The notes beneath the pieces were generated by a model. That model worked only from the letters and a program-made list of their open reading frames with translations, was not told the DNA's origin and did not search any database. A DNA stretch of 64,000 nucleotides, taken from the NCBI GenBank assembly GCA_017560765.1, contig JAFZEI010000053.1:48-64047 (forward strand), in the 5' to 3' direction. How positions within the stretch are numbered: position 1 is the first letter of the stretch; every line of letters begins with the position of its first letter. The stretch is from Clostridia bacterium. GTDB taxonomy: Bacteria > Bacillota > Clostridia > UBA1212 > UBA1255. Made by a program: the position numbers and the translations under genes. Positions 1 to 47,133 of the stretch are shown one piece after another.

Positions 1-142
1 CCGAAAGTGTTGCTCCGTCAATTGTAAGACTGTTATCCTCACCGGTTGCAACCGCTGTTGATAATTGAATTGGTACTTGTAATATAGTAATAAACATTAC
101 AATTGCAAGAAAAAGTGAAATATACTTTTTGCCTTTTCTCAT
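1..142 (-). CDS. 5' end of a gene for a secreted or membrane-anchored protein; the gene continues past the window start
   Basis: ATG at 142-140 on the minus strand, with AAGGAG (rev-comp of 149-154) 6 nt upstream. Translation is MRKGKKYISLFLAIVMFITILQVPIQLSTAVATGEDNSLTIDGATLS..., a basic n-region followed by a hydrophobic h-region. The frame is open to position 1. It is too short to appear in the ORF track. Confidence 0.45.
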   Translation of the reverse strand, partial: MRKGKKYISLFLAIVMFITILQVPIQLSTAVATGEDNSLTIDGATLS

Positions 143-238
143 AAAAATCTCCTTTGCGATAAATCATCATTTTTTAATTATGTTATCTCATTTTATTCTA
201 TCGTTTGATATACAAATTGTCAATTGATTATTTGTAAT

Positions 239-279
239 AAAAAATGAGTTGAAGTCTTAATTACTTCAACCCATTTTTG
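239..279 (-). terminator. Intrinsic terminator downstream of paralog A
   Basis: 8-bp stem gttgaagt (248-255) / acttcaac (263-270) with a 7-nt loop. An A-run at 239-244 gives a T-tract on the minus strand. Confidence 0.5.
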
Positions 280-308: not shown

Positions 309-3300
309 TCAGCTTATTTTAAATGTTCCTTCCCAAACATTCATTCCTTCTAAGTAATAGTTGTGAGCGAAATAGTATTTACCATTCACCCAGAACATAC
401 TCTCTGCTTCGCGAGTAACGTCACTTTGAATTGTCATTACATAATTGCCGTACCAGTCATAAACAACTATTACATTCTTTTTATCCTGATAACTCATCGG
501 GAAATATAAATAATTGTCATCACTGCCCATACCTTGTGCTGTATATCCCGTTTTATCGGTTCTTGTATATGTCTTGATAATTTCAAAGTTAGAATTTAAT
601 ATTTCTAACGTCTTACCGCCTCTGCTGATAGCGTAACAATCATATTTTTCGTTATACGTAATTGCGCCAGCGTATGTATCAATAGTAACGGAGCCTGTAA
701 TCGTCAACGTGTTAGGGTCGATGAAAATAAGCTCATTGCCAAGCGATCCGCCACGTGCACAAACGATGCGATTATGTTTTGAATCGTATGTCAAGTCATT
801 ACCATGACCCAAGAATAATACCTTGCTCGTAGCAACGTATGAACCGTCTGAAAGTTTATGCTTTCTGATTATTACACCTGTTTCGTCGCTGTTTCTGATA
901 GCACCGTAAATGTATACACCATCAGAGCAGCATCCTTGAGAAAGATTGTACTCACTTGTTTTGGCAAGAATAGCAATCTTCTTTGATTTCAATGACAATG
1001 TATATCCTTTTGTACTGGCAAGTATAGAAAAGTCTGCCATACCATTTACAAGCAAACCATTAGATGCCTTATCCAAAGCTTGATATTTATTAACTGTCAT
1101 ATAATCGTATATCTTGTTAAAATCAATTGAAATCTTGATATCATCAAAAGCTACTTTTGTGCCGTTAACTTGCAATCCAATCTTTCCTTTTGAAAGTGCA
1201 TTAATTTCATGAGTACGCAAAAGTTTTTTGTTGTTAATATATCCGCCTGCCGTATTACCATACGCTTCTAATTTAAACAAGTAACTCTTTGAAGCATTTA
1301 ACGCTTCGGAATATGATGTCTGCGCCTGGTATGACCATGCTGATGAAGACTCTCTCAATTGGTGAATAATACCATTTGATGCTGTAGTACCAACTTTAGC
1401 TATAAAATGATAATACAAATTTGCATTTTGTAATCTGTACATGAATGAGAACCATTTACTGGAGGACTCTCCCGATAATAAAGTTGCATTAGAAGTAATA
1501 GTATAATTGTAGAAATCAGCAAGATATGAAGGCAAGTAAACTTTACCTACACCATTCATAATAAACTTACCACCGGAAAATGTTGCTGAACCGCTACTCA
1601 TATTAACACTTAATCCATCAAAGCTGCCGGAATTAAAATCATTATAATAGAGTGTGTAATCAGAATCAGAAGGATTCTTCGCAACAATATAAACATTAAT
1701 CGTTTTTGAACCTGTTTTAGCATTAAGTTTATATACACCACTCGTTTTGATTTCAATCTTATTATCTACAATAGCAATTTCATCAGAACTCCAAATAATA
1801 TTTTTAGAACTAACGATTTTATCGTTTTTAGAGAATTGAACATTGTAGTAATCTAAGTCAACTATGTCACCAACCTCTGCAGGGAAAGCAGGTGTATCAT
1901 TCCATATAACACTTTCGATATTATTATCAATTTTAAGCATAGCAATATCAAACTTTTGACCTGCAGTGTTTCCGTATGAACACAAACGGACATTAGTACC
2001 TTCGGCTGTTTTACTGTCTGTAATATCTAAAGAAGCTGCAGAAGAACATTTAGGTACAAAAATATATGAACCACTAACCTCAAAAATATACCATTTTTGA
2101 GCATTTGATGTATCTTTTGCAGAAACACTGATATTCGTTCCTGTTACTCCGAAACCTCCGTCAACATTAAGTGATTTGCCTGTAGATACATTAATGATTC
2201 TGTATGTACCATCTGCATTCTTTTCAAATTTCCATATTTGATTCGTATTTGCAGCCATTTTATTAGATACAACATTTGTACCCGATACAGCCAATGCTGT
2301 ACCTAATCCACTGTTATTGATTCTTGCATAAAAATCATTGCCCAAATCAACAGGTGTCATTGTTTCTATTTCATTTATATTGTTAAATGCAAACACTTGA
2401 TTATTACCGCCGTTATATGTGTAAATTTCAGCATTTGAACCTGGTACAACATTAAGTCCCTGCATTTCAAGTACGCATGAAGGAGCACTCAAAGGACGAA
2501 GCACATATCTGTCTGTGCTGTATTTATGAATATACCAGCGTTGTTCCTTGCCTGTGTTTACTTCCTTCAAACAAACATTTGTGCCTGAAAGATATGTATA
2601 ACTTTCCAGTGAAAGCGCAAGTCCCGCAGTTTTATTAACGATAGTATAGGAGCCATCACTATTACGTGTGAATTGCCATACTTGTGTAGAGTCAAATGTT
2701 GTTGCAGTATCAAGAATAACATTTGTTTCTGCATAATCTAAAGCCATACCATTTGCACAAATAATTCTTGTTTCGAATGTATCGCCAAAATTCATGTATG
2801 GAGCAGTTTGTGTTCTGAAAGACTCTTTCCATCCACTGTTAACAAAATGCTTCATGCCTTGAACGTAATTGGTAGCACCATAACCATTGGCCAAGTCGCT
2901 GTTATTTTGCATATAATACTTGATGCTGAAAATCGGGCTTGCCTGACGTCCTTCTTTAATGCCGTGATTATAAAAATGCTTATATAAACCGGCTGCAGTT
3001 GAACCAAAACCCGGAATTACGTCTGAACTGTATTCTGCATAATAATTTGAATCAAAAATAACGGGTGTTACAGTATCAAATGAAGTATTATTGCTAATTT
3101 TAAACAACTGATTGTTACCACCGTTATATGTGTAAATTTCAGCATTAACACCCGGCTTACTTGTTAAACCTTGCATTTCAAGAACACAAGAAGGCGCACT
3201 CAAAGGACGAAGTACGTATGTATCAGGACTAAACTTATGAATATACCAACGTTGTTCTCTTCCCGTGTTTATTTCTTTTAAGCAAACATTTGTGCCGGAA

Positions 3301-3881
3301 AGGTATGTGTAACTTTCAAGAGAGAGTGCAAGTCCCGTAGTTTTGCTGACAATAGTATATGAACCATCGCTGTTACGAGTAAATTTCCAAATCTGTGTTG
3401 CATCAAAAGCAGCTGCAGTATTAAGAATGGCATTTGTACCTGAATAATCCAATACCAAACCGTCCTGTCCGATAACTTTTGTCTCAAAACTTTCACCTAA
3501 ATTCTCGTAAGGAGCCGTTTGTGTTCTGAAAGACTCTTTCCATCCACTGTTAACAAAGTGTTTCATTCCTTGAACATAATTGGTTTTACCATAACCATTG
3601 GCTAAGTCACTGTTATTCTGCAAGTAATATTTTACATTGAAGATAGGACTGCCCTGTCTGCCTTCACCAATACCGTGATTATAAAAATGCTTGTATAATC
3701 CGGCCTCGGTAGAACCAAATCCCGGAATAACATCCGAACTGTATCTGGCGTAATAATTGCGATCAAAAACAACAGATTTTCTGGCGGCAGGAATATAGTC
3801 TGCTGCATTAACAGGAAATGCTGTCGTAATCATCGTAAACACCAACACAAGTAGAAGTAACCTTTTAAAATTTCCTTTCAT
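309..3881 (-). CDS. Giant secreted modular lectin protein, paralog A. Order: signal peptide; 2x [YY..HF..EGR double-repeat domain + ricin-type beta-trefoil]; [ricin / Ig-like / ConA-like DUF1080-like] triad; beta-rich C-terminal domain of unknown function
   Basis: Track ORF 309-3989. The start was moved to Met37 (CAT 3879-3881) because GAAAGGA lies about 8 nt upstream and MKGNFKRLLLLVLVFTMITTAFPVNAA is a signal peptide nearly identical to that of paralog C. QxW-type motifs are present (QIWKF, QRWYI, NQLFKI). The ConA-like part ends in GKIGLQVNGTKVAFDDIKISI. Confidence 0.85.
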   Translation of the reverse strand: MKGNFKRLLLLVLVFTMITTAFPVNAADYIPAARKSVVFDRNYYARYSSDVIPGFGSTEAGLYKHFYNHGIGEGRQGSPIFNVKYYLQNNSDLANGYGKTNYVQGMKHFVNSGWKESFRTQTAPYENLGESFETKVIGQDGLVLDYSGTNAILNTAAAFDATQIWKFTRNSDGSYTIVSKTTGLALSLESYTYLSGTNVCLKEINTGREQRWYIHKFSPDTYVLRPLSAPSCVLEMQGLTSKPGVNAEIYTYNGGNNQLFKISNNTSFDTVTPVIFDSNYYAEYSSDVIPGFGSTAAGLYKHFYNHGIKEGRQASPIFSIKYYMQNNSDLANGYGATNYVQGMKHFVNSGWKESFRTQTAPYMNFGDTFETRIICANGMALDYAETNVILDTATTFDSTQVWQFTRNSDGSYTIVNKTAGLALSLESYTYLSGTNVCLKEVNTGKEQRWYIHKYSTDRYVLRPLSAPSCVLEMQGLNVVPGSNAEIYTYNGGNNQVFAFNNINEIETMTPVDLGNDFYARINNSGLGTALAVSGTNVVSNKMAANTNQIWKFEKNADGTYRIINVSTGKSLNVDGGFGVTGTNISVSAKDTSNAQKWYIFEVSGSYIFVPKCSSAASLDITDSKTAEGTNVRLCSYGNTAGQKFDIAMLKIDNNIESVIWNDTPAFPAEVGDIVDLDYYNVQFSKNDKIVSSKNIIWSSDEIAIVDNKIEIKTSGVYKLNAKTGSKTINVYIVAKNPSDSDYTLYYNDFNSGSFDGLSVNMSSGSATFSGGKFIMNGVGKVYLPSYLADFYNYTITSNATLLSGESSSKWFSFMYRLQNANLYYHFIAKVGTTASNGIIHQLRESSSAWSYQAQTSYSEALNASKSYLFKLEAYGNTAGGYINNKKLLRTHEINALSKGKIGLQVNGTKVAFDDIKISIDFNKIYDYMTVNKYQALDKASNGLLVNGMADFSILASTKGYTLSLKSKKIAILAKTSEYNLSQGCCSDGVYIYGAIRNSDETGVIIRKHKLSDGSYVATSKVLFLGHGNDLTYDSKHNRIVCARGGSLGNELIFIDPNTLTITGSVTIDTYAGAITYNEKYDCYAISRGGKTLEILNSNFEIIKTYTRTDKTGYTAQGMGSDDNYLYFPMSYQDKKNVIVVYDWYGNYVMTIQSDVTREAESMFWVNGKYYFAHNYYLEGMNVWEGTFKIS

Positions 3882-3915
3882 AGTTGAATCCTTTCTATGT
3901 TTTATTGTTAAAAAT

Positions 3916-3943
3916 ATTTTAACACTTTTTAACACTATGTCAA
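3916..3943 (-). promoter_or_regulatory. Sigma-A-type promoter of paralog A (TTGACA-N16-TGtTAAAAT)
   Basis: On the minus strand the -35 is TTGACA (3943-3938). A 16-nt spacer follows, then an extended -10 TGT+TAAAAT (3924-3916). The architecture matches the one upstream of paralog C. Confidence 0.5.
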
Positions 3944-3976
3944 TTAAATAAATTAGACATAACCATTGTTTTTTGA

Positions 3977-4005
3977 TTGATTTAAACATCAGAAAATGAT
4001 ATAAT
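3977..4005 (+). promoter_or_regulatory. Sigma-A-type promoter for the DUF1846-GT2 operon
   Basis: TTGATT (3977-3982), 17-nt spacer, extended -10 TGaTATAAT (3997-4005). It lies 77 nt upstream of the ATG at 4082. Confidence 0.45.
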
Positions 4006-33690: not shown

Positions 33691-36600
33691 TTATTTCGCT
33701 ACAATGGTTACAGGCTGTGAATAAATATACACTGTGTTTCCATCGTTCAAATTGTAAGAATAACAGAATACAACAACAGAAGTTCCAGCTTCGCTTGCTG
33801 TTACGCTTGAACCGTTATACGAAATATTCGTATTACCGTCAACTACAACCATAGTCGCAGCAGTTGTTGTAGTCACTTTTTCAGCGTATGTCTTCGTCTT
33901 TACAGGTACAGAAACTGAACCGCCCACATTTACTGTATAACCTGTTTTATCAGTATACAATCTCTCAATATAATCTGTAGCATAGTTCGTTCTATTCGTT
34001 GTAATACCCCAAAGTCCCATTGCAAAGAAATCATCAAAGATTGCAGTATCATCTATTGTATATGGCCAGATAGTTAATCCTCTGTGCGCACATTCATTGA
34101 TTAATTCCTCTGTAAGGAGCTTGTAATTTGGGTTACAAGTAGAATTATAATGTGTATAATTCTGTAAAGCCGTTTGCAAATTAGGCATGTCACCAAGTAA
34201 ACCAGTCGAAATTCCGGGAATTTGTGCTCTTACTCTGTTAATTTGATCTTGGCTGAAAGCAATAATGCAACATTGATCAAGAATATCATATTTATCAATA
34301 AGAGCCTTTATAGCCGGAACAATTGCGCTTTTATCAGTTTTAATCTCCATGTACATTATCGTACCTGTTCCCTTAAATGCTTTGAAGTAATCCTCCAATG
34401 TAGGGATATTTTCAGAGAAACCTGAGAAATAATCTACTTTATACTTGCTGACTTGAGCGTATGTCATATCCTCAAGAACACCGGTACCATTTGTTCTGGC
34501 ATCAATTGTTTTGTCGTGCATTGCCATTACAACGCCGTCTGTTGTAATTTGAAGGTCCATCTCAACAATAGCCGCACCGTATTCAACTGCCTTTTGAGCA
34601 CTAATTACAGTATTTTCGGGAGCTTTGTGTCTAAAGCCCATGTGTCCTACTATTGCCACAGGTCTAATTAAAGATATACCTTTAAACAGCGTCTTGTTCT
34701 CTACACAAGCTTCGAAATCTGCTCTGTTAGTTGTAACTACACCGGCAGCTCCTGCTGTGATAAATTTATAGAACTCAACAGCATTGTTATCTTTAGATTT
34801 ATACCACACTGTAGTAGCAAGATTTGTAAGCAATGTTGTGTTGATATCAGTGGCTAAAGAAGCCGGAAGTATAACGACTCTGCTGCCATAAGTATTTGCT
34901 TGCTCACGTACTACTGTAAGATCCGTAATAGCAGCGTCTGACAAATCATAAATACCGCGTACCTTTGTGTATATCGAACGAACTTGTGTAATAAGCTTAC
35001 CATTTGTTGATACAACAAACACATCATACAATCCGTTTGCTTTAAGGAAATATGCCAACTCTGTAGCTTCTGCAGTTTTATCAAGTCTGAAGGCCGGAAT
35101 AATACCGCTTGAAAGTTCAAATAAAGCCTCAGGAATTGTACAAATAACATTATTATCTTTATCTACGACATTTAAATTACTATCAATAGACAATATAACT
35201 GTTGTAGGTGAATTTTTATGGATATTTGCAAAATCCTCTGATGTTTCAACTTCAAATACCATTGAAGGAGGAACAGAAATATTCGTTGTAAACTCTCTTA
35301 CATCAACAGTAGGTGCCACGTGTGAATGAACCTTGTCAAAATCGATTGTAACCTTGATATAGTCGGCTACAGCAGTCGCTCCGTCACCTGTTTGGAAACC
35401 TACGTTTCCTTTCTTGTAGTCAGTGAAAGCATCACTTACGTTAAACATCTGCTTTCCGCCAAGGTAACCTATTGCATCATCTCCGTAAATCGATAATGAC
35501 ATAGGATACATTTTGCTTGAGCTGATTGTTTCTGTATAAGAAGTTTTACCTTGATATTCCCAACTGCCTGAACTGTTCTTTTCAGCAAATTCAACACCAT
35601 TTTCAGCTTTTGCATTTTGGCGAATCGCAAATTGGTAGAAAGGATAATTGTTGTTTTGAACTCTATGCATAACAGATAACCAGCGGGACGAATTGCTCAC
35701 TGTCTTAAATGTTAAGCTTGTGTTAATTGTATAATCACCAAAGTCTGAAACAAAAGAAGGTAATAATACACTGGAGACCGGTTGGAGTGTCAAAACACCA
35801 TCGGATAATGAAGCAGATCCCTTACCAATAGTAAGTTCGTCTAAATCTGTTGCATCATTAAAGTCATTGTAATAAAGAACATACTCAGAATCTGTAGGAT
35901 TCTTAACGATAAGATAAATTACCTTCTTTAATGAGCCGCATGTTGCATTAATTTTGTATATGCCTGCATCAGAAGCTGTTATTTTATCCTCACTGTCAAT
36001 AGATATCTCTGTAGATGACCATTTAATCTTTTCTCCGGTGTAAATTTTACCGTTTTGAGCAAATTGAACATTGTAATTATCCAAATCCAAGGAGAAACCT
36101 ACATTTGCAGGAATAGCAGGTGCATTGTAAAATACTGTGCTTTCCGTACCGTTAACAAGCGAAACCTTGTTTATTTCATATTTCTTTGCAGCATTGTCAT
36201 CAAATGTCCATAACTGTACATTTGCACCGTTAGCTGTAGAACCACCTGAAATATCCATAACACATTCATACGCACAAACAGGAATGAATACATAATAACC
36301 ATTTCTATCATAGATTCTCCATTTTTGACCATTTGAACCTGTAAATGAATATGAAATTATATTAGTACCTGCTGTAGAACCTGATGAAGTTGCAGCCAAG
36401 AACTGTCCATTACCAAGATTCTGAATAAAGTAAGTACCATCAGAATTTTTAACAAAACGCCAAATTTGGCTTGCGTCTGTAGTTGGTGCACTGATAACTA
36501 CATTTGTGCCTGATAAGCTTATGTTTTTACCAACACTTGATTCAGAAATTCTCGCATAGAAATCATCACCTAAATCTGCAGGCTTATTGTTATACAGAGA

Positions 36601-39600
36601 AATAAGTTTTGTGTAAGCGTAAACCGTATCAAAGTCTACCGTAACTTTAATAGAATCAAACACACCGGTAGAATCCGCAGTTTGAATACCAATATCACCT
36701 ACAGCATAAGAAGTGAAAGCAGATGATTCAAGCACCTTTTTAGAATTAATATAACCTTTTGCGTTATTTCCGTATACGTATAATTTTAAAGAATACAGCT
36801 TCGCTGAATCAATTTTCTCGGTATATGATGTTTTTCCTTGGTAACCCCAACCACCTGAACTGTTCTTTTCAGCAAACTCAATACCATTCTCAACTGTTGC
36901 ATCTTTTCTGATTGCAAATTGATAGAAAGGATAACTGCTGTTTTGCACACGGTGCATAATTGACATCCATCTTGTGCTGTTTTTGCTATCTGTAATAGAA
37001 GCACTTGCATCAATTGTATAATTACCGAAGCCGCTGATATAAGCAGGAAGCAATAATGTTTTTGTTCCTTTAATAATTAATCTGCCGTTTGAAACAGACA
37101 GTGTTCCGGCACCTGCAATACTTCTGAAATCACTTAAATCGCTACTGTTAAAATCGTTATAATATAAAACGTATTCTTTATCTGTAGGATTCTTTGCAAT
37201 AATGTAAATCTTTTTAGTCGAAGAACCGGATTTAGCAACGAGCTCATAAACTCCCGGTACAGTTACATCAACCTTACCATCACTGATTGTAATAGCAGAA
37301 GAAGACCATGTTATGTTTGATTTTGAAGTAATTTTAGAATTCAATGTAAATTGAACATGGTAATTATTAAGATCAACAACATCACCTACATTAGCCGAAA
37401 TAGCCGGTGTAGTATGCCAAATAACATTTTCTCTTCCATCTTTTACTTCAACCTTTAAGATGTCAAATTTCTTGGAATTATTAGTATCATCATTATAAGA
37501 CCAAAGCTGTATATTTGTACCGTTAGCAGTTGAACCGCTTGCAAAGTCCATTACTGCAGCATGTGAACATGTTGGCACAATTACGTAACCGCCATTTGCA
37601 TAATAAATATTCCAATGCTGACCTTTAGAACCTGTATAAGTGTATGCATGGATATTCGTTCCGTTTGCACTTTTAGAACTTTCTGCACACAAGTATTTTC
37701 CGTTGCTTTGATTGCGGATAACGTATGAGCCATCTGCTTTTCTTGTAAATCTCCAAATTTGGCTGTCATCTCCTGTAGGAGTACTAATCATAACATTATC
37801 TGTGTCGGAAAGTGTGAGGTTCTTACCTGCTTTAGATTCAGAGATTCTAGCAAGGAAGTCATCTCCTAAATTGATTATTTCACCGGAGCGCAAAGTGGAA
37901 ACTCTTGCATAAGCATAAACTTTATTAAATTCTATAAACACCTTTATAGAATCATACTCGGCTGTAATATTTGATCCCGTACGGAATCCAATATCACCAA
38001 CGGCATAATCAGTATAAGCAGACGATGACAATAATAATTTTGTATTAATAAAACCTCTTAATTGATTTTGATAAACAAAAATCTTGTAATCATATAACTT
38101 TGAAGCATTAATGGCCTCTGTGAAAGATTTTTTACCTTGATATTCAAATGTACCTGAGTTGTTCTTTTCAGAAAACTCAACACCATTAGAAGCATTCGCA
38201 CCTTTTCTGATTGTCATTTGATAGAAAGGATAATCTTTTTTCTGCACACGGAACATGATTGATTTAAATCTATCTGCTGCAGTTGCAGTTTTAATTGTAC
38301 CGCGAGCATAAATTGTATAATCACCAAATTCACCTACATATGCAGGAAGCAATACTCTCTTAGCGTTTGTGATTACTAATCTGCCGTTTGAGATCTTTAC
38401 TGTGCCTGCACCGTCAATTACTCTCAATTCATTTAACTTAGATGCACTGTTAAAATCGTTGTAATACAAAACATGCTCAGTATCACTTGCTTTTTTTGCA
38501 ATAATATAAATCTTCTTTGTTGTGCTGCCACTCTTAGCGGTAAGAGCAAAAACACCTGAATTGGGAACAGTAACTTTACCATCCGTAACAGTAAGCACAT
38601 CGGATGACCATGTAATCGAAGATTTATTTGTAATTTTTGAATTCAAAGCAAATTGAACGTGATAATCACTAAGTGTAATAACATCACCCACATTTGCAGG
38701 AATTGCAGGAGCTGTAAACCAAATTACATTTTCTCTGTTATCTTTTATATCAACTTTTAAAATTTCATATTTTTTAGCTGCATTATCATCAAATCCCGAT
38801 AATTGCACATTCGTACCATTAGCGGTTTTTGCTCCGGCAACATCCATTGTAGCTGCATAGGAACAAGATGGAACGAATACATATTTACCGTTTTTATTAT
38901 AAATATGCCAACGCTGACCTGCAGCACCTGTGTATGCTTCAACAAGTATATTCGTTCCGTTTGCACTTGCTGAACCGGCCGCTGTTAAATACAGACCATT
39001 GCTTTGGTTGCGAATAATGTATGAACCATCAACATTTCTTTTAAAATACCAAATTTGGCTGTCATTACCTGCAGGAGAATTGATTACAACATTGTTTGAA
39101 GAAAGTGTAAGATTCTTGTATGCACCTGATTCAGATATTCTTGCATAAAAATCAGTACCAACGTCTGCTATATCTTTACTGTAAAGATTTGCAAGCTTTG
39201 TGTAACTGTATATTTGCGCAAAATCAATATAAACTTTTATTGAATCATAGTGAACTGTAATATTGGCACCTGTACGGAATCCAATATCACCAATCGCATA
39301 ATCAGTATATGCTGATGAAGATAAAAGTAATTTTGTATTAATATATCCTTTTAAATTATTCTGATATATCTGAATTTTGTAATCATATAACTTCGATGCA
39401 TTAATTTCCTCTGTAAATGCAACTTTGCCTTGATATTCAAATGATCCGGAGCTGTTCTTCTCAGAGAATTCTACACCATTTGAAGCATTTGCACCTTTTC
39501 TGATTGTCATTTGATAGAACGGATAATCTTTTTTCTGCACACGGAACATGATTGTCTTAAATCTATCTGCAGCAGTTGCGGAAGCAATAGTACCGCGAGC

Positions 39601-40560
39601 ATGTATTGAGTAGTCTCCAAATTCTCCTACAAACGCAGGAAGCAATACTCTCTTTGCATTTGTGATGACTAATTTGCCATTCGAAATCTTAACAGTACCG
39701 GCTCCGTCAATTACTCTCAATTCATTTAACTTAGCTGCACTATTAAAGTCATTGTAATACAAAACGTAATCAGTATCAGATGTCTTCTTTGAAATTAAAT
39801 AAATTTTCTTCGTTGTGCTGCCATTTTTTGCATTAAGAACGAAAACGCCTGCAGCAGAAACCTTAACTTTACCATCTGTTATAGTAATATCACTTGATGT
39901 CCAAGTAATCTTAGAACTTGGAGTTAACGAAGAATTCAAAGAGTATTGTACATGGTAATCATTAAGATTAATCGTGTCACCTACATTCGCAGGTATGGCC
40001 GGTGCAGTAAACCAAATTACATTTTCAAAATTTTTGCTCACATTTGCTTTTAAAATATCAAACTTCCCGGAGAAGCTGCTATCAATCGCATAAAGCTGAA
40101 CATTTGCACCGTTTGATGTGCTGCCATTTGCTATGTCCATTGAACATGCCGAAGTACACGCAGGAACAAATGAATAATGTCCGTCAAGTTCACATACATA
40201 CCATTTTTCTCCTGTTGCCCCTGTCGAATCTGCAGTAACTATATTGGTCCCCGATGCTGTGCCTGAATTAGAAGCACAGAGAACCTTACCATTACCTTGA
40301 TTGTATATGGTATATGTACCATCCGTATTCCTAATAAAACGCCAAAGCTGAGCAGTGGCACGTGCAGGAGCATTAATCACTACATTAGTACCTGATAAGG
40401 CAAGATTCTTTCCCGAACCTGCTTCAGCTATTCTTGCACAAAAATCGTCACCTAAATCTGCAGAGACAAGCTCTGTTGCAACTGAACTAATAGGTACATA
40501 TGATACCATGAGAACAAATACAAGCAGAAAAGCCATAACTCTTTTTAGATTTCCACTCAT
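33691..40560 (-). CDS. Giant secreted lectin-phosphodiesterase, paralog B. Order: signal peptide; 4x [ricin beta-trefoil / Ig-like / ConA-like DUF1080-like]; degenerate GDPD-like domain; GDPD domain; C-terminal Ig-like domain
   Basis: Track ORF 33691-40608. The start was set at Met17 (CAT 40558-40560), with GAAAGGGG 8 nt upstream, giving MSGNLKRVMAFLLVFVLMVSYVPISSVA. (QxW)3-like motifs occur in each lectin, e.g. AQLWRF / EKWYV / GKFDI. The GDPD motif is GHMGFRHKAPENT...VEMDLQITTDGVVMAMHD. Confidence 0.9.
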   Translation of the reverse strand: MSGNLKRVMAFLLVFVLMVSYVPISSVATELVSADLGDDFCARIAEAGSGKNLALSGTNVVINAPARATAQLWRFIRNTDGTYTIYNQGNGKVLCASNSGTASGTNIVTADSTGATGEKWYVCELDGHYSFVPACTSACSMDIANGSTSNGANVQLYAIDSSFSGKFDILKANVSKNFENVIWFTAPAIPANVGDTINLNDYHVQYSLNSSLTPSSKITWTSSDITITDGKVKVSAAGVFVLNAKNGSTTKKIYLISKKTSDTDYVLYYNDFNSAAKLNELRVIDGAGTVKISNGKLVITNAKRVLLPAFVGEFGDYSIHARGTIASATAADRFKTIMFRVQKKDYPFYQMTIRKGANASNGVEFSEKNSSGSFEYQGKVAFTEEINASKLYDYKIQIYQNNLKGYINTKLLLSSSAYTDYAIGDIGFRTGANITVHYDSIKVYIDFAQIYSYTKLANLYSKDIADVGTDFYARISESGAYKNLTLSSNNVVINSPAGNDSQIWYFKRNVDGSYIIRNQSNGLYLTAAGSASANGTNILVEAYTGAAGQRWHIYNKNGKYVFVPSCSYAATMDVAGAKTANGTNVQLSGFDDNAAKKYEILKVDIKDNRENVIWFTAPAIPANVGDVITLSDYHVQFALNSKITNKSSITWSSDVLTVTDGKVTVPNSGVFALTAKSGSTTKKIYIIAKKASDTEHVLYYNDFNSASKLNELRVIDGAGTVKISNGRLVITNAKRVLLPAYVGEFGDYTIYARGTIKTATAADRFKSIMFRVQKKDYPFYQMTIRKGANASNGVEFSEKNNSGTFEYQGKKSFTEAINASKLYDYKIFVYQNQLRGFINTKLLLSSSAYTDYAVGDIGFRTGSNITAEYDSIKVFIEFNKVYAYARVSTLRSGEIINLGDDFLARISESKAGKNLTLSDTDNVMISTPTGDDSQIWRFTRKADGSYVIRNQSNGKYLCAESSKSANGTNIHAYTYTGSKGQHWNIYYANGGYVIVPTCSHAAVMDFASGSTANGTNIQLWSYNDDTNNSKKFDILKVEVKDGRENVIWHTTPAISANVGDVVDLNNYHVQFTLNSKITSKSNITWSSSAITISDGKVDVTVPGVYELVAKSGSSTKKIYIIAKNPTDKEYVLYYNDFNSSDLSDFRSIAGAGTLSVSNGRLIIKGTKTLLLPAYISGFGNYTIDASASITDSKNSTRWMSIMHRVQNSSYPFYQFAIRKDATVENGIEFAEKNSSGGWGYQGKTSYTEKIDSAKLYSLKLYVYGNNAKGYINSKKVLESSAFTSYAVGDIGIQTADSTGVFDSIKVTVDFDTVYAYTKLISLYNNKPADLGDDFYARISESSVGKNISLSGTNVVISAPTTDASQIWRFVKNSDGTYFIQNLGNGQFLAATSSGSTAGTNIISYSFTGSNGQKWRIYDRNGYYVFIPVCAYECVMDISGGSTANGANVQLWTFDDNAAKKYEINKVSLVNGTESTVFYNAPAIPANVGFSLDLDNYNVQFAQNGKIYTGEKIKWSSTEISIDSEDKITASDAGIYKINATCGSLKKVIYLIVKNPTDSEYVLYYNDFNDATDLDELTIGKGSASLSDGVLTLQPVSSVLLPSFVSDFGDYTINTSLTFKTVSNSSRWLSVMHRVQNNNYPFYQFAIRQNAKAENGVEFAEKNSSGSWEYQGKTSYTETISSSKMYPMSLSIYGDDAIGYLGGKQMFNVSDAFTDYKKGNVGFQTGDGATAVADYIKVTIDFDKVHSHVAPTVDVREFTTNISVPPSMVFEVETSEDFANIHKNSPTTVILSIDSNLNVVDKDNNVICTIPEALFELSSGIIPAFRLDKTAEATELAYFLKANGLYDVFVVSTNGKLITQVRSIYTKVRGIYDLSDAAITDLTVVREQANTYGSRVVILPASLATDINTTLLTNLATTVWYKSKDNNAVEFYKFITAGAAGVVTTNRADFEACVENKTLFKGISLIRPVAIVGHMGFRHKAPENTVISAQKAVEYGAAIVEMDLQITTDGVVMAMHDKTIDARTNGTGVLEDMTYAQVSKYKVDYFSGFSENIPTLEDYFKAFKGTGTIMYMEIKTDKSAIVPAIKALIDKYDILDQCCIIAFSQDQINRVRAQIPGISTGLLGDMPNLQTALQNYTHYNSTCNPNYKLLTEELINECAHRGLTIWPYTIDDTAIFDDFFAMGLWGITTNRTNYATDYIERLYTDKTGYTVNVGGSVSVPVKTKTYAEKVTTTTAATMVVVDGNTNISYNGSSVTASEAGTSVVVFCYSYNLNDGNTVYIYSQPVTIVAK
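33967..34665 (-). other. GDPD (glycerophosphodiester phosphodiesterase-fold) catalytic domain of paralog B
   Basis: H-x-G...PENT...E-x-D...HD signature, and a C-terminal WGITTNR equivalent to the GDPD 'GvdgiiTD' end. Confidence 0.75.
35329..40458 (-). repeat. Intragenic tandem array: 4 copies of an approx 1.29-kb (429-433 codon) lectin/Ig/ConA-like module
   Basis: Module starts (D/N-LGDDF) map to 40458, 39165, 37872 and 36576. The conserved Met of M(F/H)RVQ maps to 39549, 38256, 36957 and 35670. Segments 39491-39570 and 38198-38277 differ at 3 of 80 nt by eye. Confidence 0.9.
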
Positions 40561-40645
40561 GCAAAAAACCCCTTTCATTGTGTATAATATTTTGTCATTA
40601 CAGCTCAAAAAAGCATAAACTTATCCGAGGATAATACTTATTGTA

Positions 40646-40833: not shown

Positions 40834-43800
40834 TTATTTAGCCACAATCGTCACAGGCTGTGAGTAAATATGAACTGTATTTCCGTCTGTTAATTTATAT
40901 GCAAAACGGAATACAACTGTTGATGTTCCTGCTTTGCTAGCTGAAACACTTGAACCATTAAACGTAATGCCTGTATTACCGTCAACAACAACCATTTCCG
41001 CAGCTGTTGTTGCAGCAACTTTCTCTGCATAAGTTTTGGTGTATACAGGAACTGAAACTGAGCTGCCAACATTTACGCTGTATGATGTACTTGTTGTGTA
41101 CAATCTTTCAATGTAATTTGTAGCAAAGTCTGTTCTGTTCGTTGTTATGCCCCAAAGTCCCATCGCAAAGAAATTATCAAACGTTGCAGAGCTATCAATT
41201 GTGTATGGCCAAATGGTAAGACCTCTAAACGCACATTCTTTAAGATGTGTCTCTGTAAGTGCCTTATAGTTTGGATTGCAAGTAGAGTTATAATGAGTAT
41301 ACACTTTCAAAGCTTCTTCTACTGTAGGCATTTCTGCAAGCAAACCTGTAGATATACCGGGTATTAATTGTCTTACCTTATTAATCTGGGCGTGTTGGAA
41401 TGAAATAATACAACATTGGTCGAGAATGTCATATTTATCAATCAATGCCTTAATTGCAGGAACAATAGTACTCTTACTTGATTTGATTTCCAAATACATT
41501 ATCGTGTTAGTTCCCTTAAATGCCTTGAAATAATCCTCCAAAGTCGGAATCTTCTCCGAGAAACCGGAAAAGTAGTCTACTTTATACTTGCTAACCTGAG
41601 CATACGTCATATTCTCAAGAACACCGGTACCATTAGTTCTGGAATCAATTGTTTCATCATGCATTGCCATTACAACGCCGTCTGTTGTAATTTGAAGGTC
41701 CATTTCAACAATTGTTGCACCGTATTCAACTGCTTTTTGAGCACTTAATACAGTATTCTCAGGAGCTATTTTTCTATAGCCCATATGTCCAACTATGGCA
41801 GCCGGTCTGATCAATGATTTAGCTTTAAACAATGTACTGTTCTCAACGCAAGCTTCAAAGCCTGTTCTGTCTTCTACGAGAACACCTTGAGCCCCTGCAG
41901 TAATAAATTTATAGAATTCTGCATTATTGTTTTGTTCTGCCTTAAACCAAACTGTAGTCGCCAAATTTCTGAGCATTGTAGCATTTGTATCCGTAGCTAA
42001 TGCGGCAGGTAAAATAACGACTCTGCTACCGTAAGTATTTGCCTGCTCACGGGCAACAGAAATGTCTGTTATCGATGCTTTTGACAAATCATATATACCT
42101 CTTACATTTGTGTAAATAGAGCGCACTTGATTTATAAGCTTACCATTTGAAGCTACAATAAATACATCGTACAAGGCATTTGCGCCAAGATAATTTGCAA
42201 TTGCTGTAGCCTCTGCTGTTGTATCAATTCTAAATGCAGGAATTACACCACCGGCAAGTTCAAGGAACGCCTCGGGAATTGTACAAATAACATTATTGTT
42301 TTTATCCACAACATTTAAATTACCGTCTATTGACAATATAACTGTTGTAGGTGAATTTTTATGAATATTTGCAAAATCTTCTGCTGTTTCTACCTCAAAT
42401 GCCATTGTCGGAGGAAGTGCAATATTAGTGGTAAATTCTCTAACGTCAACTGATGTGGAAATATGAGGATAAACCTTATCAAAATCAATTGTAACACAGA
42501 TGTAATCTACAACTGCAGTTGCTCCTGAACTTGTCTGGAATCCAATATTTCCTCTTGTATAATCAGTAAATGCATTACTTACATTAAACAATTGTGTACC
42601 ACTGAGAGTTCCTACGGCATCGTCACCATAAACAGATAATAAAAATTGGTACATTTTGCTTGCACTGATAGTCTCCGTATATGATGTTTTGCCTTGATAT
42701 TCCCAACCGCCTGAGCTATTCATTTCAGCAAATTCCACACCGTTAGCAGCCTTTGCATTATTTCTGACAACAAATTGATAGAAAGGAAAATTGTTATTTT
42801 GTACACGGTGCATCAGAGAGAACCAGCGCGAGGAATCAGATGCTGTTTTTATTGTTGCACTTGCATCTATTGTATAATCGCCGAATTCCGATACATAAGA
42901 TGGCAAGAATACCTTTGTAGCAGCAGCAATGTTAAGAAGTCCGTTTGATACAGATACCGAGCCTTGCGTTACCGTAAGGTCATTCTTGTCAGCAGCTTCA
43001 TTGAAATCATTATAATACAAAACATACTTTCCGTCAGAAGGTTTCTTAACTACAAGATATATAACTTTCTTTAACAATCCGTGTGTTGCATTAAGTTTGT
43101 AAACACCGGCAGATGTAGCAGTAACCTTATCTTCACTGTCGATTGTAATCTCAGTAGAAGACCATTTTATTTGCTCTCCCGAATAAATCTTACCGTTTTG
43201 CGCAAATTGAACATTGTATCTGTCAAGATCCAATGCAAAACCAACCTCTGCAGGTATTGCAGGAGCATTAAAGAATACTGTTGTTTCCGCACCGCCGTTA
43301 ATCGAAACCTTAGTGATATCGTACTTCTTTGCGGCATTATCATCAAAAGTCCAAAGCTGTACGTTCGTTCCGTCTGCTGTTGAACCTGACACAATATCCA
43401 TTGAACAGTCATAAGCACAAACAGGTACGAATACATATTTGCCATCCTTGCTGTAAATGTTCCATTTTTGTGCATTGGAGCCTGTATACGCGTACGAAAT
43501 AACATTTGTTCCTGCTGTGGAACCTGAGTTCTTTGCAGCCAAATATTGACCGTTGCTTAAGTTAATCATGCTGTAAGTACCGTCTGCATTCTTCACAAAT
43601 CTCCAAATTTGACTTGCATCTGTTGTAGGCGTACTGATTACAACATTTGTATCTGATAATGTAAGATTTTTACCAACGCTCGATTCAGATATTCTTGCAT
43701 AGAAATCATCACCCAAATCAGCTTTATTGTTTGCATACAAGGAAATAAGCTTTGTATAAGCAAAAATGTTGTTAAAATCAACAGAAACCTTAATATAATC

Positions 43801-46800
43801 AAATTCAGCCGTAGAATCCGCAGTTTGAATACCAATATCACCTACAGCATAAGATGTGAAGGCAGATGATTCAAGTACCTTATTAGAATTAATATATCCT
43901 TTTGCGTTATTTCCGTATACCGATAATTTTAAGGAATACATCTTCGCTGCATCAATTTTCTCAGTATATGATGTTTTTCCTTGGTAACTCCAACCGCCGG
44001 CGCTGTTCATTTCCGCAAACTCAACACCATTTGCAACTGTTGCATCTCTTCTGATTGCAAATTGATAGAAAGGATAATTACTATTCTGTACTCTGTGCAT
44101 TAAAGACATCCATCTGGTGTTATTTGTGCTTGCTGTAATTGTAGCTTTAGCGTCAATTGTGTAATTACCAAATGTGCTGATATATGCGGGAAGTAAAATA
44201 ACCTTTGTACCTTTTACTATTAATCTGCCATTAGAAACAGATAATGTGCCTCCGCCGCTAATTACTCTGAAATCACTTAAATCACTGCTGCTGAAATCAT
44301 TATTGTAAAGAATATATTCTGAATCACTTGCATTTTTGGCAACGATGTATACTTTCTTCGTAGTGTTGCCTGCTTTTGCAGTCAATTCATGTACTCCGGC
44401 AACGGAAACTGTAACCTTACCATCAACTATTTGAAAACTTGATGATGTCCATGTAATTTCTGTATTGTGAGTAATACATGAATTTAGAGCAAATTGAACA
44501 TTATACTTGTTAAGGTCTATAACATCGCCAACATTTGCCGGAATGGCAGGAGTTGTATGCCATACAACATTTTCTTTATTGTCAGCAATCTCAACCTTTA
44601 TAATATTAAATCTCTTCGCATCGGAAAGATCATCATTATATGCCCATAATTGTATGTTTCCTCCGTTAGATGTAGTACCGCCGGAAACATCCATTGTAGC
44701 AGCATAGGAGCATGTAGGAACGATTACGTATGAACCATCAACATAATAGAAATCCCAATGTTGACCCTTTGAGCCTGTAAATGAATACGAATGAATATTT
44801 GTACCGTTTGCAGACTGAGAACTTGTTGCACATAAATATGTACCGTTCTTTTGGTTGCGAATCATATACGAACCGTTAGTTCTTTTAATAAATTCCCAAA
44901 TTTGACTACTGTCTCCTGTAGGCGTGCTTATCATTACATTATTATCAGAAGAAAGAGTCAAGTTCTTTCCGGCTTTGCTTTCTTCGATTCTGGCATAGAA
45001 ATGATCTCCAAGATCAACAGGCTTATTCTGATAGAGAGAAATAACTCTTGCATAACTGTAAACAGTATCAAAGTTTACAGAAACCTTTATGGAATCATAC
45101 TCAGCTGTGATATTTGATCCTGTACGGAATCCAATATCACCCACAGCATAATCTGTGTACGCATTAGAATTCAAAAGTTGTTTTGAATTAATAAATCCAC
45201 GCATATTGCTTTGATAAATATTTACTTTATAATCATAGAGCTTTGATGCATTAATCGCCTCAGTAAATGCAACTTTACCTTGATACTCAAATGTACCCGA
45301 GCTGTTCTTTTCAGAAAACTCCACACCATTAGAAGTATTTGCACCTTTTCTGATTGTCATTTGGTAGAAAGGATAATCCTTTTTCTGCACACGGAACATG
45401 ATTGTCTTAAATCTGTCTGCTGCAGTTGCAGAAGTAATTGTACCGCGAGCGTGAATCGAATAATCACCAAACTCGCCTACATACGCAGGAAGTAACACTC
45501 TCTTTGCATTTTTAATTACGAGACGTCCGCCTGATATGCTTACTGTACCTGCTCCGTCAATTACTCTTAATTCATTCAACTTAGATGCGCTGTTAAAATC
45601 GTTATAATATAAAACGTACTCGGAATCTGTTGCGTTTTTAGCAATTATATAAATAGACTTAGATGTGCTGCCTGACTTTGCAGTAAGCTTATATACGCCT
45701 GTACCCGGAATCGTTACCTTGCCATCTTTTATTGTTAAATCACTTGATGTCCATGTAATTGATGACTTATCTGTTATTTTTGATTTCAAACCAAATTGCA
45801 CATGATAACTTGTAAGATCAACAGTATCACCCTTATCGGCACCGATTGCAGGTGTAGTATACCAAATAACATTCTCTCTGTTATTTCCTATATCAACCTT
45901 TAAAATATCAAATTTTTTGCAATTATTGCCATCGTAAGTCCACAAATGTACATTTGTACCGTCGTTTTTACTGCCGCCGCGAACATCTAATGATGTTGAA
46001 TAAGCGCACTTGGGTACAAATACATAAGTGCCGTCAACCTCAAAGATGTACCATCTTTGTGAGTTTGAATTATTACTCTCTGCAACACTTATGTTTGTTC
46101 TGTTTGTTGCCAAACCTCCGTCAACATTCAACGAAGTACCTGTTGCCTGATTTACAATTCTGTATGTGCCATCTGTATTGCGATTGAACTTCCAAATTTG
46201 ATTGGTGGCTGATGTTGTTTTATTTGATACAACGTTTGTACCCGACAAAGCAACAGAAGTACCTAAATCACTATTGATTATTCTTGCGTAAAAACCATCG
46301 CCTATATCAGCAGGTTTCATTGTTTCTATGTCATTAACTTTGTTAATTGTAAACAACTGATTATTGCCGCCATTATACGTATAAATTTCAGCATTTACTC
46401 CAGCTTTAACTGTTAAGCCTTGCATTTCAAGTACACAAGAAGGTGCGCTTAACGGACGAAGCACGTAAATATCTGTACTGTACTTATGAATGTACCAGCA
46501 CTGTTCTCTGCCGCCGGAAACTTCCTTTAAACAAACATTTGTACCGGAAAGGTATGTATAGCTATCTAACGAAAGTGCAAGTCCAGTTATTTTACTGACA
46601 ATAGAATAAGAACCGTCACTTTTGCGAGTAAATTGCCATATTTGTGTAGCATCAAATGTTGTTGCTGTATCGAGAATAACATTTGTTCCCGCATAGTCCA
46701 AAACCAAACCGCTAAGACCTGTAATTCTTGCTTCAAAGCTATCTCCTAAATTCACATATGGTGCTGTTTGAGTTCTGAAAGACTCTTTCCAACCACTGTT

Positions 46801-47133
46801 TACAAAATGCTTCATGCCTTCTACATAGTTCTTTGCACCATATCCGTTAGCCAAATCGCTATTATTCTGCATGTAGTATTTTACACTAAAAATAGGGCTT
46901 CCCTGTCGACCTTCAGCAATACCATGATTGAAAAAGTGATTATACAATCCTGATGCTGTTGAGCCAAATCCCGGTATTACATCAGAACTATACTCTGCAT
47001 AGTAGTTTGGATCAAAAACTACGGATTTTCTTTCTGCAGGAATATAATCGGTTGCTGCTGTAACAGGAAATGCTGTAACAACAATAGCAAACACCAAAAC
47101 GAGTGAAAATAACCGTTTAAAATTTCCTTTCAT
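40834..47133 (-). CDS. Giant secreted lectin-phosphodiesterase, paralog C. Order: signal peptide; YY..HF..EGR double-repeat domain; ricin; 3x [ricin / Ig-like / ConA-like]; degenerate GDPD-like domain; GDPD domain; Ig-like domain
   Basis: 2099 aa. ATG at 47133 with a GAAAGGA RBS. Signal peptide MKGNFKRLFSLVLVFAIVVTAFPVTAA. GDPD motif GHMGYRKIAPENT...VEMDLQITTDGVVMAMHD. The C-terminal ~545 aa are closely similar to paralog B. Confidence 0.9.
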   Translation of the reverse strand: MKGNFKRLFSLVLVFAIVVTAFPVTAATDYIPAERKSVVFDPNYYAEYSSDVIPGFGSTASGLYNHFFNHGIAEGRQGSPIFSVKYYMQNNSDLANGYGAKNYVEGMKHFVNSGWKESFRTQTAPYVNLGDSFEARITGLSGLVLDYAGTNVILDTATTFDATQIWQFTRKSDGSYSIVSKITGLALSLDSYTYLSGTNVCLKEVSGGREQCWYIHKYSTDIYVLRPLSAPSCVLEMQGLTVKAGVNAEIYTYNGGNNQLFTINKVNDIETMKPADIGDGFYARIINSDLGTSVALSGTNVVSNKTTSATNQIWKFNRNTDGTYRIVNQATGTSLNVDGGLATNRTNISVAESNNSNSQRWYIFEVDGTYVFVPKCAYSTSLDVRGGSKNDGTNVHLWTYDGNNCKKFDILKVDIGNNRENVIWYTTPAIGADKGDTVDLTSYHVQFGLKSKITDKSSITWTSSDLTIKDGKVTIPGTGVYKLTAKSGSTSKSIYIIAKNATDSEYVLYYNDFNSASKLNELRVIDGAGTVSISGGRLVIKNAKRVLLPAYVGEFGDYSIHARGTITSATAADRFKTIMFRVQKKDYPFYQMTIRKGANTSNGVEFSEKNSSGTFEYQGKVAFTEAINASKLYDYKVNIYQSNMRGFINSKQLLNSNAYTDYAVGDIGFRTGSNITAEYDSIKVSVNFDTVYSYARVISLYQNKPVDLGDHFYARIEESKAGKNLTLSSDNNVMISTPTGDSSQIWEFIKRTNGSYMIRNQKNGTYLCATSSQSANGTNIHSYSFTGSKGQHWDFYYVDGSYVIVPTCSYAATMDVSGGTTSNGGNIQLWAYNDDLSDAKRFNIIKVEIADNKENVVWHTTPAIPANVGDVIDLNKYNVQFALNSCITHNTEITWTSSSFQIVDGKVTVSVAGVHELTAKAGNTTKKVYIVAKNASDSEYILYNNDFSSSDLSDFRVISGGGTLSVSNGRLIVKGTKVILLPAYISTFGNYTIDAKATITASTNNTRWMSLMHRVQNSNYPFYQFAIRRDATVANGVEFAEMNSAGGWSYQGKTSYTEKIDAAKMYSLKLSVYGNNAKGYINSNKVLESSAFTSYAVGDIGIQTADSTAEFDYIKVSVDFNNIFAYTKLISLYANNKADLGDDFYARISESSVGKNLTLSDTNVVISTPTTDASQIWRFVKNADGTYSMINLSNGQYLAAKNSGSTAGTNVISYAYTGSNAQKWNIYSKDGKYVFVPVCAYDCSMDIVSGSTADGTNVQLWTFDDNAAKKYDITKVSINGGAETTVFFNAPAIPAEVGFALDLDRYNVQFAQNGKIYSGEQIKWSSTEITIDSEDKVTATSAGVYKLNATHGLLKKVIYLVVKKPSDGKYVLYYNDFNEAADKNDLTVTQGSVSVSNGLLNIAAATKVFLPSYVSEFGDYTIDASATIKTASDSSRWFSLMHRVQNNNFPFYQFVVRNNAKAANGVEFAEMNSSGGWEYQGKTSYTETISASKMYQFLLSVYGDDAVGTLSGTQLFNVSNAFTDYTRGNIGFQTSSGATAVVDYICVTIDFDKVYPHISTSVDVREFTTNIALPPTMAFEVETAEDFANIHKNSPTTVILSIDGNLNVVDKNNNVICTIPEAFLELAGGVIPAFRIDTTAEATAIANYLGANALYDVFIVASNGKLINQVRSIYTNVRGIYDLSKASITDISVAREQANTYGSRVVILPAALATDTNATMLRNLATTVWFKAEQNNNAEFYKFITAGAQGVLVEDRTGFEACVENSTLFKAKSLIRPAAIVGHMGYRKIAPENTVLSAQKAVEYGATIVEMDLQITTDGVVMAMHDETIDSRTNGTGVLENMTYAQVSKYKVDYFSGFSEKIPTLEDYFKAFKGTNTIMYLEIKSSKSTIVPAIKALIDKYDILDQCCIISFQHAQINKVRQLIPGISTGLLAEMPTVEEALKVYTHYNSTCNPNYKALTETHLKECAFRGLTIWPYTIDSSATFDNFFAMGLWGITTNRTDFATNYIERLYTTSTSYSVNVGSSVSVPVYTKTYAEKVAATTAAEMVVVDGNTGITFNGSSVSASKAGTSTVVFRFAYKLTDGNTVHIYSQPVTIVAK
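41110..41808 (-). other. GDPD catalytic domain of paralog C
   Basis: Same signature as in B. The 43-nt stretch 41661-41703 is identical to 34518-34560. Confidence 0.75.
42472..46308 (-). repeat. Intragenic tandem array: 3 copies of the approx 1.29-kb lectin/Ig/ConA-like module
   Basis: Module starts (DIGDGF / DLGDHF / DLGDDF) are at 46308, 45015 and 43719. Segment 45341-45420 differs from B 39491-39570 at 4 of 80 nt by eye. Confidence 0.9.

Follow-up and report, generated by a model that had tools for sequence, protein, structure and literature searches.

Within a 64,000-nucleotide (nt) stretch of contig JAFZEI010000053.1 from a Clostridia bacterium (assembly GCA_017560765.1), hereafter the window, the minus-strand gene A encodes a Sec-exported modular protein of about 1164 amino acids (aa) once its signal peptide is cleaved, and this protein belongs to a domain-shuffled family in which a conserved N-terminal scaffold is combined with alternative domains, here called heads. 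The head of A is predicted to be a compact five-bladed beta-propeller, whereas the other two of the three large minus-strand open reading frames (ORFs) of the window, B (33691..40608) and C (40834..47133), carry GDPD heads. Tentatively, and with slightly less than even confidence, we read these proteins as domain-shuffled exoproteins aimed at cell-wall glycopolymers, in which the propeller would bind or process a polymer component alongside the GDPD heads; A, B and C probably belong to a single functional toolkit. A is not a new kind of system: swapped heads are well known from modular families of surface proteins and exoproteins. One lectin scaffold with peptidoglycan-hydrolase, phosphodiesterase-type and propeller heads offers a way to test how uncultured Firmicutes of the gut attach to and reshape wall glycopolymers, their own or those of neighbours.

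The modules of A follow one another as a YY/EGR all-alpha module plus a ricin-type beta-trefoil lectin (twice), one triad of ricin lectin, immunoglobulin (Ig)-like segment and concanavalin A (ConA)-like domain, and the five-bladed propeller. The curated ricin-lectin profiles matched A clearly, PF14200 in three stretches (E=4.1e-43, 146 bits against a cut-off of 25.6 bits) and PF00652 at 67.8 bits, while the ConA-like part of the triad gave only a weak 3keto-disac_hyd match of 21.7 bits, below cut-off. For the YY module, no Pfam match, no PDB sequence match and no Foldseek match at E ≤ 0.001 were obtained. In A the entire N-module, YY domain and ricin lectin together, is duplicated in tandem over 687 nt with 78% identity (window 3773-3089 and 3062-2378). 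The YY module of C was located at 46711-47052 on the minus strand.

Comparison of A with B and C by BLASTP aligned residues 1-282 of A with 1-283 of C at 77% identity and residues 274-930 of A with 38-697 of C at 58%, confirming an earlier note on this DNA in its claim that A and C share the signal peptide, the YY/EGR module, ricin lectins and one triad. The single triad of A also matched every triad of B and C, more weakly; triads number three in C and four in B. The signal peptide, the ricin modules, the triads and, in C only, the YY module are thus held in common, whereas the GDPD head of B and C is unrelated to the propeller of A in sequence and in fold class. No BLASTP match was found between A past residue ~930 and the heads of B or C, and Pfam recognised ricin modules in all three proteins and GDPD (PF03009) in B and C only, so the C-terminal region of A is indeed unrelated to the GDPD region, as had been proposed. 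The distance from A to B, on the same strand, is 29.8 kb, in agreement with the roughly 30 kb given before.

Both N-modules of A and that of C share 78-80% identity with one another. Along the alignment, A/C identity declines gradually towards the head, from ~85% to ~25%, with 60-70% in the triad ricin lectin, 40-55% in the Ig part, 20-40% in the ConA-like part and no relation between the heads. As the earlier note had suggested, breakpoints were sought by alignment, and a sharp A/C recombination breakpoint was rejected. Since identity decays gradually and the nucleotide identity between A and C is 74-78% with no near-identical tract, the mosaic is real but old. The N-modules of A and C share only 46-58% identity with their counterparts in propeller-headed proteins (P0006, P0007) or GDPD-headed proteins (genomes G003, G004) of other species, and the head-proximal triads group by head type across species, with 54-58% identity among the propeller-headed and 36-45% against the GDPD-linked ones.

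The same scaffold was then followed through related genomes. Within the genus, five of 10 genomes encode the YY module, each with as many as 10 copies, and it is absent from the other four genera of the family. Ricin modules number 11-28 in each of the four most ricin-rich YY genomes (26-28 each in G000, G003 and G004), four in the fifth YY genome and 0-5 in the other genomes. A survey of related genomes for further heads, as proposed earlier, proved productive: in sister species the YY-plus-ricin scaffold carries CHAP (6), NAGPA phosphodiester glycosidase (4), EEP with LTD (3), GDPD (2) and metallo-beta-lactamase (MBL; 1) heads, and in the own genome it carries, besides propeller and GDPD, CHAP (2) and a GDSL esterase. 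Neither in the own genome nor in the sister species was a YY/ricin scaffold seen to bear a glycoside hydrolase or lyase head. In the sister-species proteins (loci L027-L046, genomes G003-G005), heads are N-terminal in some and C-terminal in others. The architecture of A, with signal peptide, YY module, ricin lectins, triad and propeller, is also present in other species (P0006, P0007). The own genome contains no CWB2 or choline-binding repeats (PF01473) and just three SLH proteins. Two further ricin-bearing proteins of this genome (C105:17018-19948 and C79:10395-14054) have other companions, a cohesin domain in one and six Big_2 repeats in the other.

The head of A comprises 268 aa including a linker of ~35 aa, with a propeller core of ~230 aa; the domain had been described before as beta-rich and ~290 aa long, of which the first part stood and the size did not. 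In the AlphaFold2 model, made with the family alignment (predicted local distance difference test score, pLDDT, 89; predicted template modelling score, pTM, 0.84), 20 strands form five four-stranded blades, and the four blade-like segments pointed out in the sequence correspond to the inner-strand motifs of blades 2-5. The head had no Pfam match at E ≤ 10 and no PDB match by sequence. When Foldseek was run against the PDB, the top structures by template modelling (TM) score were the glutaminyl cyclases 3nol, 2iwa and 3mbr (TM 0.64-0.72, E 1e-10 to 9e-9), and the receptor-binding proteins of the Staphylococcus phages phi11 (5efv) and NF5 (9m7x) were also found (TMq 0.59-0.63). Against BFVD, the best fold matches were gut-phage tail spike and fibre proteins, with a root-mean-square deviation of 3.1 A. 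A phage origin of the head was considered and rejected, since sequence relatives were found neither by tblastn in 50,697 phage genomes nor in IMG/VR.

When 1.84 billion cluster representatives were scanned in full with HMMER, the propeller family was found to contain 958 clusters at 50% identity (E ≤ 1e-3). Its members are mostly free-standing secreted proteins or lipoproteins, and the usual architectures are either ~410-440 aa, with a ~190-aa N-terminal region before the propeller, or ~270-300 aa and free-standing. The named matches were all "hypothetical protein" and came from metagenome-assembled genomes (MAGs) of Clostridia, Eubacteriales, Bacillota and Bacteroidales, and a contig scan with full-length A gave one distant propeller match, in a rumen Clostridiales MAG. 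The sole match in a PDB profile search, the N-terminal domain of GH84, was reached through the extra N-terminal region of the ~410-aa members, which A does not have. Pfam PF21311 (Phage_RBD_prop) matched four of 61 family members weakly (best E=3e-4), and not the head of A. This family of gut Clostridia and Bacteroidales MAGs thus has a polar site that is sharply conserved, and neither a Pfam model nor a solved structure represents it. Many of the ~410-440-aa members begin with a lipoprotein-like Cys, and the ~190-aa region of this commonest architecture has weak matches to the N-terminal domains of GH84 O-GlcNAcase, NAGLU and GH67 (E 0.02-1e-5). Tandem propellers in two or four copies occur in P0015 (1342 aa, four copies), P0022, P0029 and P0042.

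In the 61-member alignment, H104, N106, D107, Q194, G195, D199, E236 and E238 (domain numbering) are invariant and Q60 is conserved in at least 90% of the members. The invariant residues are kept in all four propellers of the own genome. The invariant polar residues differ from blade to blade, each standing where the innermost strand of its blade begins. The innermost strands of propeller blades surround the mouth of the central channel. Invariant residues that differ between blades argue for a single asymmetric pocket, like that of an enzyme or a single-ligand site, rather than for the repeated inter-blade sites of propeller lectins, and we infer that such a polar pocket lies at the mouth of the central channel in the predicted fold. 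We lean slightly towards a pocket that would be catalytic rather than binding only.

Gene A stands first in a tandem array of three paralogs with propeller heads (A, A2, A3). The earlier view of A as a third family member with a different head was thus right about the head; A is not alone, as A2 and A3 follow it. The contig ends 355 nt past the stop codon of A, within A2. The full A2-like form, P0005, is a protein of 1456 aa with a ~350-aa unannotated N-terminal region, two triads and a propeller 87% identical to that of A. The 3' end of A2 was found on contig C66, where A3 starts 170 nt after it, and the 3' part of A3 was found on contig C122, encoding two triads and a propeller 54% identical to that of A, with the contig ending 61 nt after A3. 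The assembly is interrupted within each of the three genes, presumably owing to N-terminal regions that are 97% identical. The ~350-aa N-terminal region (L026 159-1250, corresponding to P0005 aa 1-364; C66:2213-3199) has no Pfam match and stands in for the YY-plus-ricin N-module in A2 and A3. The fourth propeller of the own genome is a free-standing lipoprotein of 292 aa on contig C126.

A tree built from 136 propeller domains places A, A2, P0004-7 and 13 genuine free-standing membrane-anchored proteins together in a single clade supported at 100%, and A3 groups with the free-standing lipoproteins C126, P0010 and P0177 with 99% support, so that the tree needs at least two fusion or fission events. 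The propeller is present in 21 of the 46 genomes and seven of the 15 genera of the order, fused to lectins only in this genome. The module identities, the grouping of triads by head, the heads in sister species and this tree all agree with the earlier proposal of a domain-shuffled family with a conserved scaffold and swapped heads.

The gene neighbourhoods of the propeller link it to GDPD. The closest free-standing propellers, 74-77% identical to the head of A, are encoded 28-58 nt upstream of a gene for a 244-aa GDPD on four contigs, which represent two protein clusters at 90% identity, and the two genes apparently form an operon. These pairs, from other gut bacteria, lie at L048 6001-7599, on L049, at L065 536-2180 and at L066 1135-2733, the propeller gene encoding a membrane-anchored protein of 278-283 aa, with FGGY kinase, FAD oxidoreductase, Fe-ADH and GDSL genes nearby. 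In a related species, the gene for P0007 adjoins a cluster for wall-glycopolymer synthesis (Bac_transf, EpsG, NTP-transferase, choline kinase, LicD, glycosyltransferases and an LtaS-like sulfatase) and a gene for a 1617-aa CHAP-ricin protein.

The CHAP and phosphodiesterase-type heads, the propeller-GDPD pairing and the phi11-like fold therefore make a toolkit directed at wall glycopolymers the most likely account of the family. Further points in its favour are the synthesis cluster beside the P0007 gene, the polyprenol-phosphate glycosyltransferase and amidase genes near A, the expansion of ricin modules, the lack of CWB2 and choline-binding repeats in the own genome, and the UmbA lectins of Streptomyces, which draw on the same kinds of domain and, with the pneumococcal choline-binding proteins, offer the nearest analogies in logic. 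By this mechanism, the multivalent lectin array would hold the protein on a teichoic-acid- or phosphoglycan-type wall glycopolymer, either the cell's own or a neighbour's; the asymmetric polar pocket of the propeller would bind or process a component of that glycopolymer; and the propeller and the GDPD heads would act in a shared pathway. Such joint action, as suggested by the propeller-GDPD pairing, is a concrete biochemical hypothesis.

Several points weigh against this account. A ligand or activity is known for no member of the propeller family, and the placement of the invariant residues in a central pocket follows from strand topology and not from coordinates. Ricin-type lectins also bind host and plant galactosides and xylans, so the target of the scaffold could be dietary or mucosal, and other propeller-containing proteins carry only binding-type modules (LamG, Big_2, Flg_new), company that fits a lectin as well as an enzyme. 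Outside one clade the propeller neighbourhoods are uninformative, with housekeeping or non-conserved genes in Bacteroidales, other Clostridia and 15 loci of the same family, and the link to GDPD is weak across the order, with five of 30 matches within ~10 kb, four of them from one syntenic locus.

A bolder version of the wall-glycopolymer account, which we consider unlikely, is that the propeller founds a so far undescribed family of enzymes acting on teichoic-acid-type wall polymers, with the YY/ricin array serving as noncovalent wall targeting. If so, the propeller enzyme might remove a substituent or make a cut that lets GDPD teichoicases proceed, and such preparation of the polymer would account for the pairing of propeller and GDPD genes; the YY/ricin array would in that case play a part like that of choline-binding or CWB2 modules, restricted to some species of the genus.

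Among known systems, the choline-binding proteins of Streptococcus pneumoniae include the LytA amidase, LytB, LytC and Pce/CbpE, a phosphorylcholine esterase of MBL fold. By analogy, the family of A may follow the same logic of one repeated wall-binding module with many wall-active heads: peptidoglycan hydrolase and MBL-fold teichoic-acid phosphodiesterase heads are found there, and CHAP and MBL heads likewise on the YY/ricin scaffold. Unlike the choline repeats of those proteins, A has a ricin array with ConA-like and Ig modules, and its wall attachment is putative. GlpQ-type teichoicases were grouped with the lectin-array GDPD proteins B and C as related systems. The platform propeller of the phi11 receptor-binding protein Gp45 (5EFV; PF21311) is, like the head of A, compact and five-bladed with a central cavity and with 3NOL as its best enzyme-fold relative (TMq 0.63 to the head of A). 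In the phi11 work, 3NOL was the closest fold of the propeller, whose central cavity was suggested to accommodate the wall-teichoic-acid GlcNAc (PMC4901313). In contrast to Gp45, the head of A has no PF21311 match and is not part of a trimeric tail or baseplate protein; the context of A is chromosomal and housekeeping, and the propellers of its family stand instead at the C-terminus of a Sec-exported lectin array or alone as lipoproteins or anchored proteins.

The scaffold could instead be a glycan adhesin or CAZyme-like system directed at host or diet, its modules binding mucin, plant or fungal glycans of the gut and its heads serving nutrient capture or attachment, which we regard as unlikely. 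The gut and bovine-gut metagenome habitat, the adhesin-type LamG, Big_2 and Flg_new modules on other propeller-containing proteins and the cohesin-ricin protein in the genome all suit such a role, as does the fact that ricin-type modules (the CBM13 and ricin B families) classically bind Gal/GalNAc or xylan. It fits less well that the same scaffold bears CHAP and several phosphodiesterase-type heads and no glycoside hydrolase or lyase head, and that the propeller genes lie outside sugar-utilisation loci, their nearest free-standing relatives being paired with GDPD.

It is slightly less likely still, in our view, that the family is an interbacterial weapon set, in which lectin arrays would aim lytic or wall-stripping heads (CHAP, phosphodiesterases, propeller) at the wall glycopolymers of Gram-positive competitors, much as bacteriolysins or the lectins of umbrella toxins do, and would diversify in an arms race. 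The expansion in few species of the genus (YY in five of 10 genomes, up to 10 copies each), the varying heads and lectin numbers between paralogs and the diverged paralogs in tandem arrays would be expected of such a set. There is also an overlap in domain kit with the UmbA lectins of Streptomyces, which combine five-bladed propellers, ricinB, LamG, GDSL, GDPD and Ig-like domains in a diversified C-terminal repertoire on a conserved scaffold; for UmbA4, binding to a teichuronic-acid-like polymer that is linked to wall teichoic acid has been demonstrated, and its ligand-bound propeller has at least six blades with sites between and on the blades (PMC13274773). The resemblance of A to UmbA is confined to the lectin-domain repertoire: A has no peptidase or trypsin match in Pfam and so lacks the N-terminal trypsin-like domain by which UmbA docks on UmbB/UmbC, no toxin subunit or particle was found for A (the UmbB and UmbC partners were not searched for), and the multi-site propeller of UmbA4 differs from the one predicted asymmetric central site of the A family. 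Against a weapon there are further the absence of any toxin domain, immunity-like gene or strain-level head variation, and lytic enzymes of the CHAP and phosphodiesterase kind are equally typical of autolysins.

The earlier note had likened the family to polymorphic toxins or effectors, in which a conserved delivery scaffold carries interchangeable toxic C-terminal domains, each with an immunity protein. A shared N-terminal half with unrelated C-terminal domains, and a propeller fused to or split from lectin scaffolds at least twice, do resemble that design, yet the idea is now largely refuted and very improbable. Neither Pfam nor NCBIfam showed a trafficking or delivery domain such as polymorphic toxin systems (Rhs, CDI, LXG, MafB and similar) have, A having just a Sec signal, the YY module and lectins. 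Of the four head-gene junctions, three have no immunity ORF, as the note itself had remarked for A: the gene is followed directly by a terminator, a promoter and A2, A2 by A3, and the P0007 gene by a convergent CHAP gene, while the fourth junction, after A3, is a contig end. Strain-level swapping of heads was not seen either: in four gut and bovine-gut metagenomes from four separate studies (P1, P3, P5, P8), contigs span scaffold and head collinearly with 96-100% identity, and P0004 matches A throughout at 98%. The nucleotide identity of A and C, at 74-78% with gradual decay, excludes recent recombination. Moreover, the head family consists mostly of free-standing secreted proteins and lipoproteins, the sibling heads are hydrolases, and the full A-type architecture is present in other species (P0006, P0007).

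That the head is a plant- or bacterial-type glutaminyl cyclase, converting the N-terminal Gln of secreted proteins to pyroglutamate, is barely credible: its five-bladed fold, its size (~230-250 aa) and a putative functional site at the central face agree with 3NOL, 3MBR and 2IWA, the best PDB folds, but identity is 12-14% with no detectable sequence relation, there is no Pfam match at E ≤ 10 including Glu_cyclase_2 (PF05096), the PDB sequence and profile searches returned no cyclase, the conserved residues appear to differ, as does the context, and a cyclase has no evident need of a lectin array.

The features of gene A are listed in Table 1. Although the ORF of A extends over 309..3989, three observations place the start at the ATG at 3881: a ribosome-binding site, the promoter inside the extension, and the start of P0004 (1190 aa, from another metagenome, 98% identical to A) at the same methionine; the coordinates 309..3881 are therefore right.

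Table 1 Gene A, its modules and its flanking signals (window positions)
Feature	Position	Strand	Description
Gene A	309..3881	minus	1190 aa; start ATG at 3881
Sec signal peptide, aa 1-26	3804..3881	minus	MKGNFKRLLLLVLVFTMITTAFPVNA then cleavage before AD; common to C; cleavage site inferred from A-x-A
YY/EGR module copy 1, aa 27-125	3507..3803	minus	Two-repeat all-alpha; AlphaFold pLDDT 83, seven helices
Ricin-type beta-trefoil lectin copy 1, aa ~131-270	3072..3491	minus	Pfam PF14200
YY/EGR module copy 2, aa 274-367	2781..3062	minus	Part of tandem duplication
Ricin-type beta-trefoil lectin copy 2, aa 368-494	2400..2780	minus	Pfam; tandem duplication
Triad, aa 495-930	1092..2399	minus	Third ricin lectin, Ig-like segment and ConA-like/DUF1080-like beta-sandwich; Pfam, BLASTP
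Linker between triad and propeller, aa 931-961	999..1091	minus	Low-confidence helix in model; junction after conserved triad end motif DF..YDY
Five-bladed beta-propeller head (predicted), aa 962-1190	312..998	minus	Member of unannotated family; AlphaFold, alignment
Ribosome-binding site GAAAGGA	3889..3895	minus	7 nt before ATG 3881; sequence read directly
Gene A promoter-like site	3916..3943	minus	Sigma-70-type TTGACA, 16 nt, TG-n-TAAAAT; 11/12 matches, extended -10
Spurious 5' ORF extension of A	3882-3989	minus	36 codons; holds gene A's own promoter
Terminator-like intrinsic hairpin 3' of A	240..271	minus	GGGTTGAAGTAATTAAGACTTCAAC then TCATTTTTT
A2 promoter-like site	195..223	minus	TTGACA, 17 nt, TAGAAT; 11/12 matches
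A2 5' end (MRKGKKYISLF...)	1..142	minus	Runs off window and contig; 97% nt identity to P0005 gene start

A run search of any kind for RNA evidence of A listed only metagenome contig sets provisionally typed as DNA, and no RNA-restricted search was made. The neighbours of A are a DUF1846 gene, a gene for a PgfS/ArnC-like polyprenol-phosphate glycosyltransferase of family GT2, a gene for an Amidase_3 lipoprotein and housekeeping genes. The GT2 gene (window 5588-6553, plus strand) is divergent from A and aligns over its full length to PgfS and ArnC-type polyprenol-phosphate glycosyltransferases; its match of 225 bits is below the equivalog cut-off and fits an extracytoplasmic glycosylation route.

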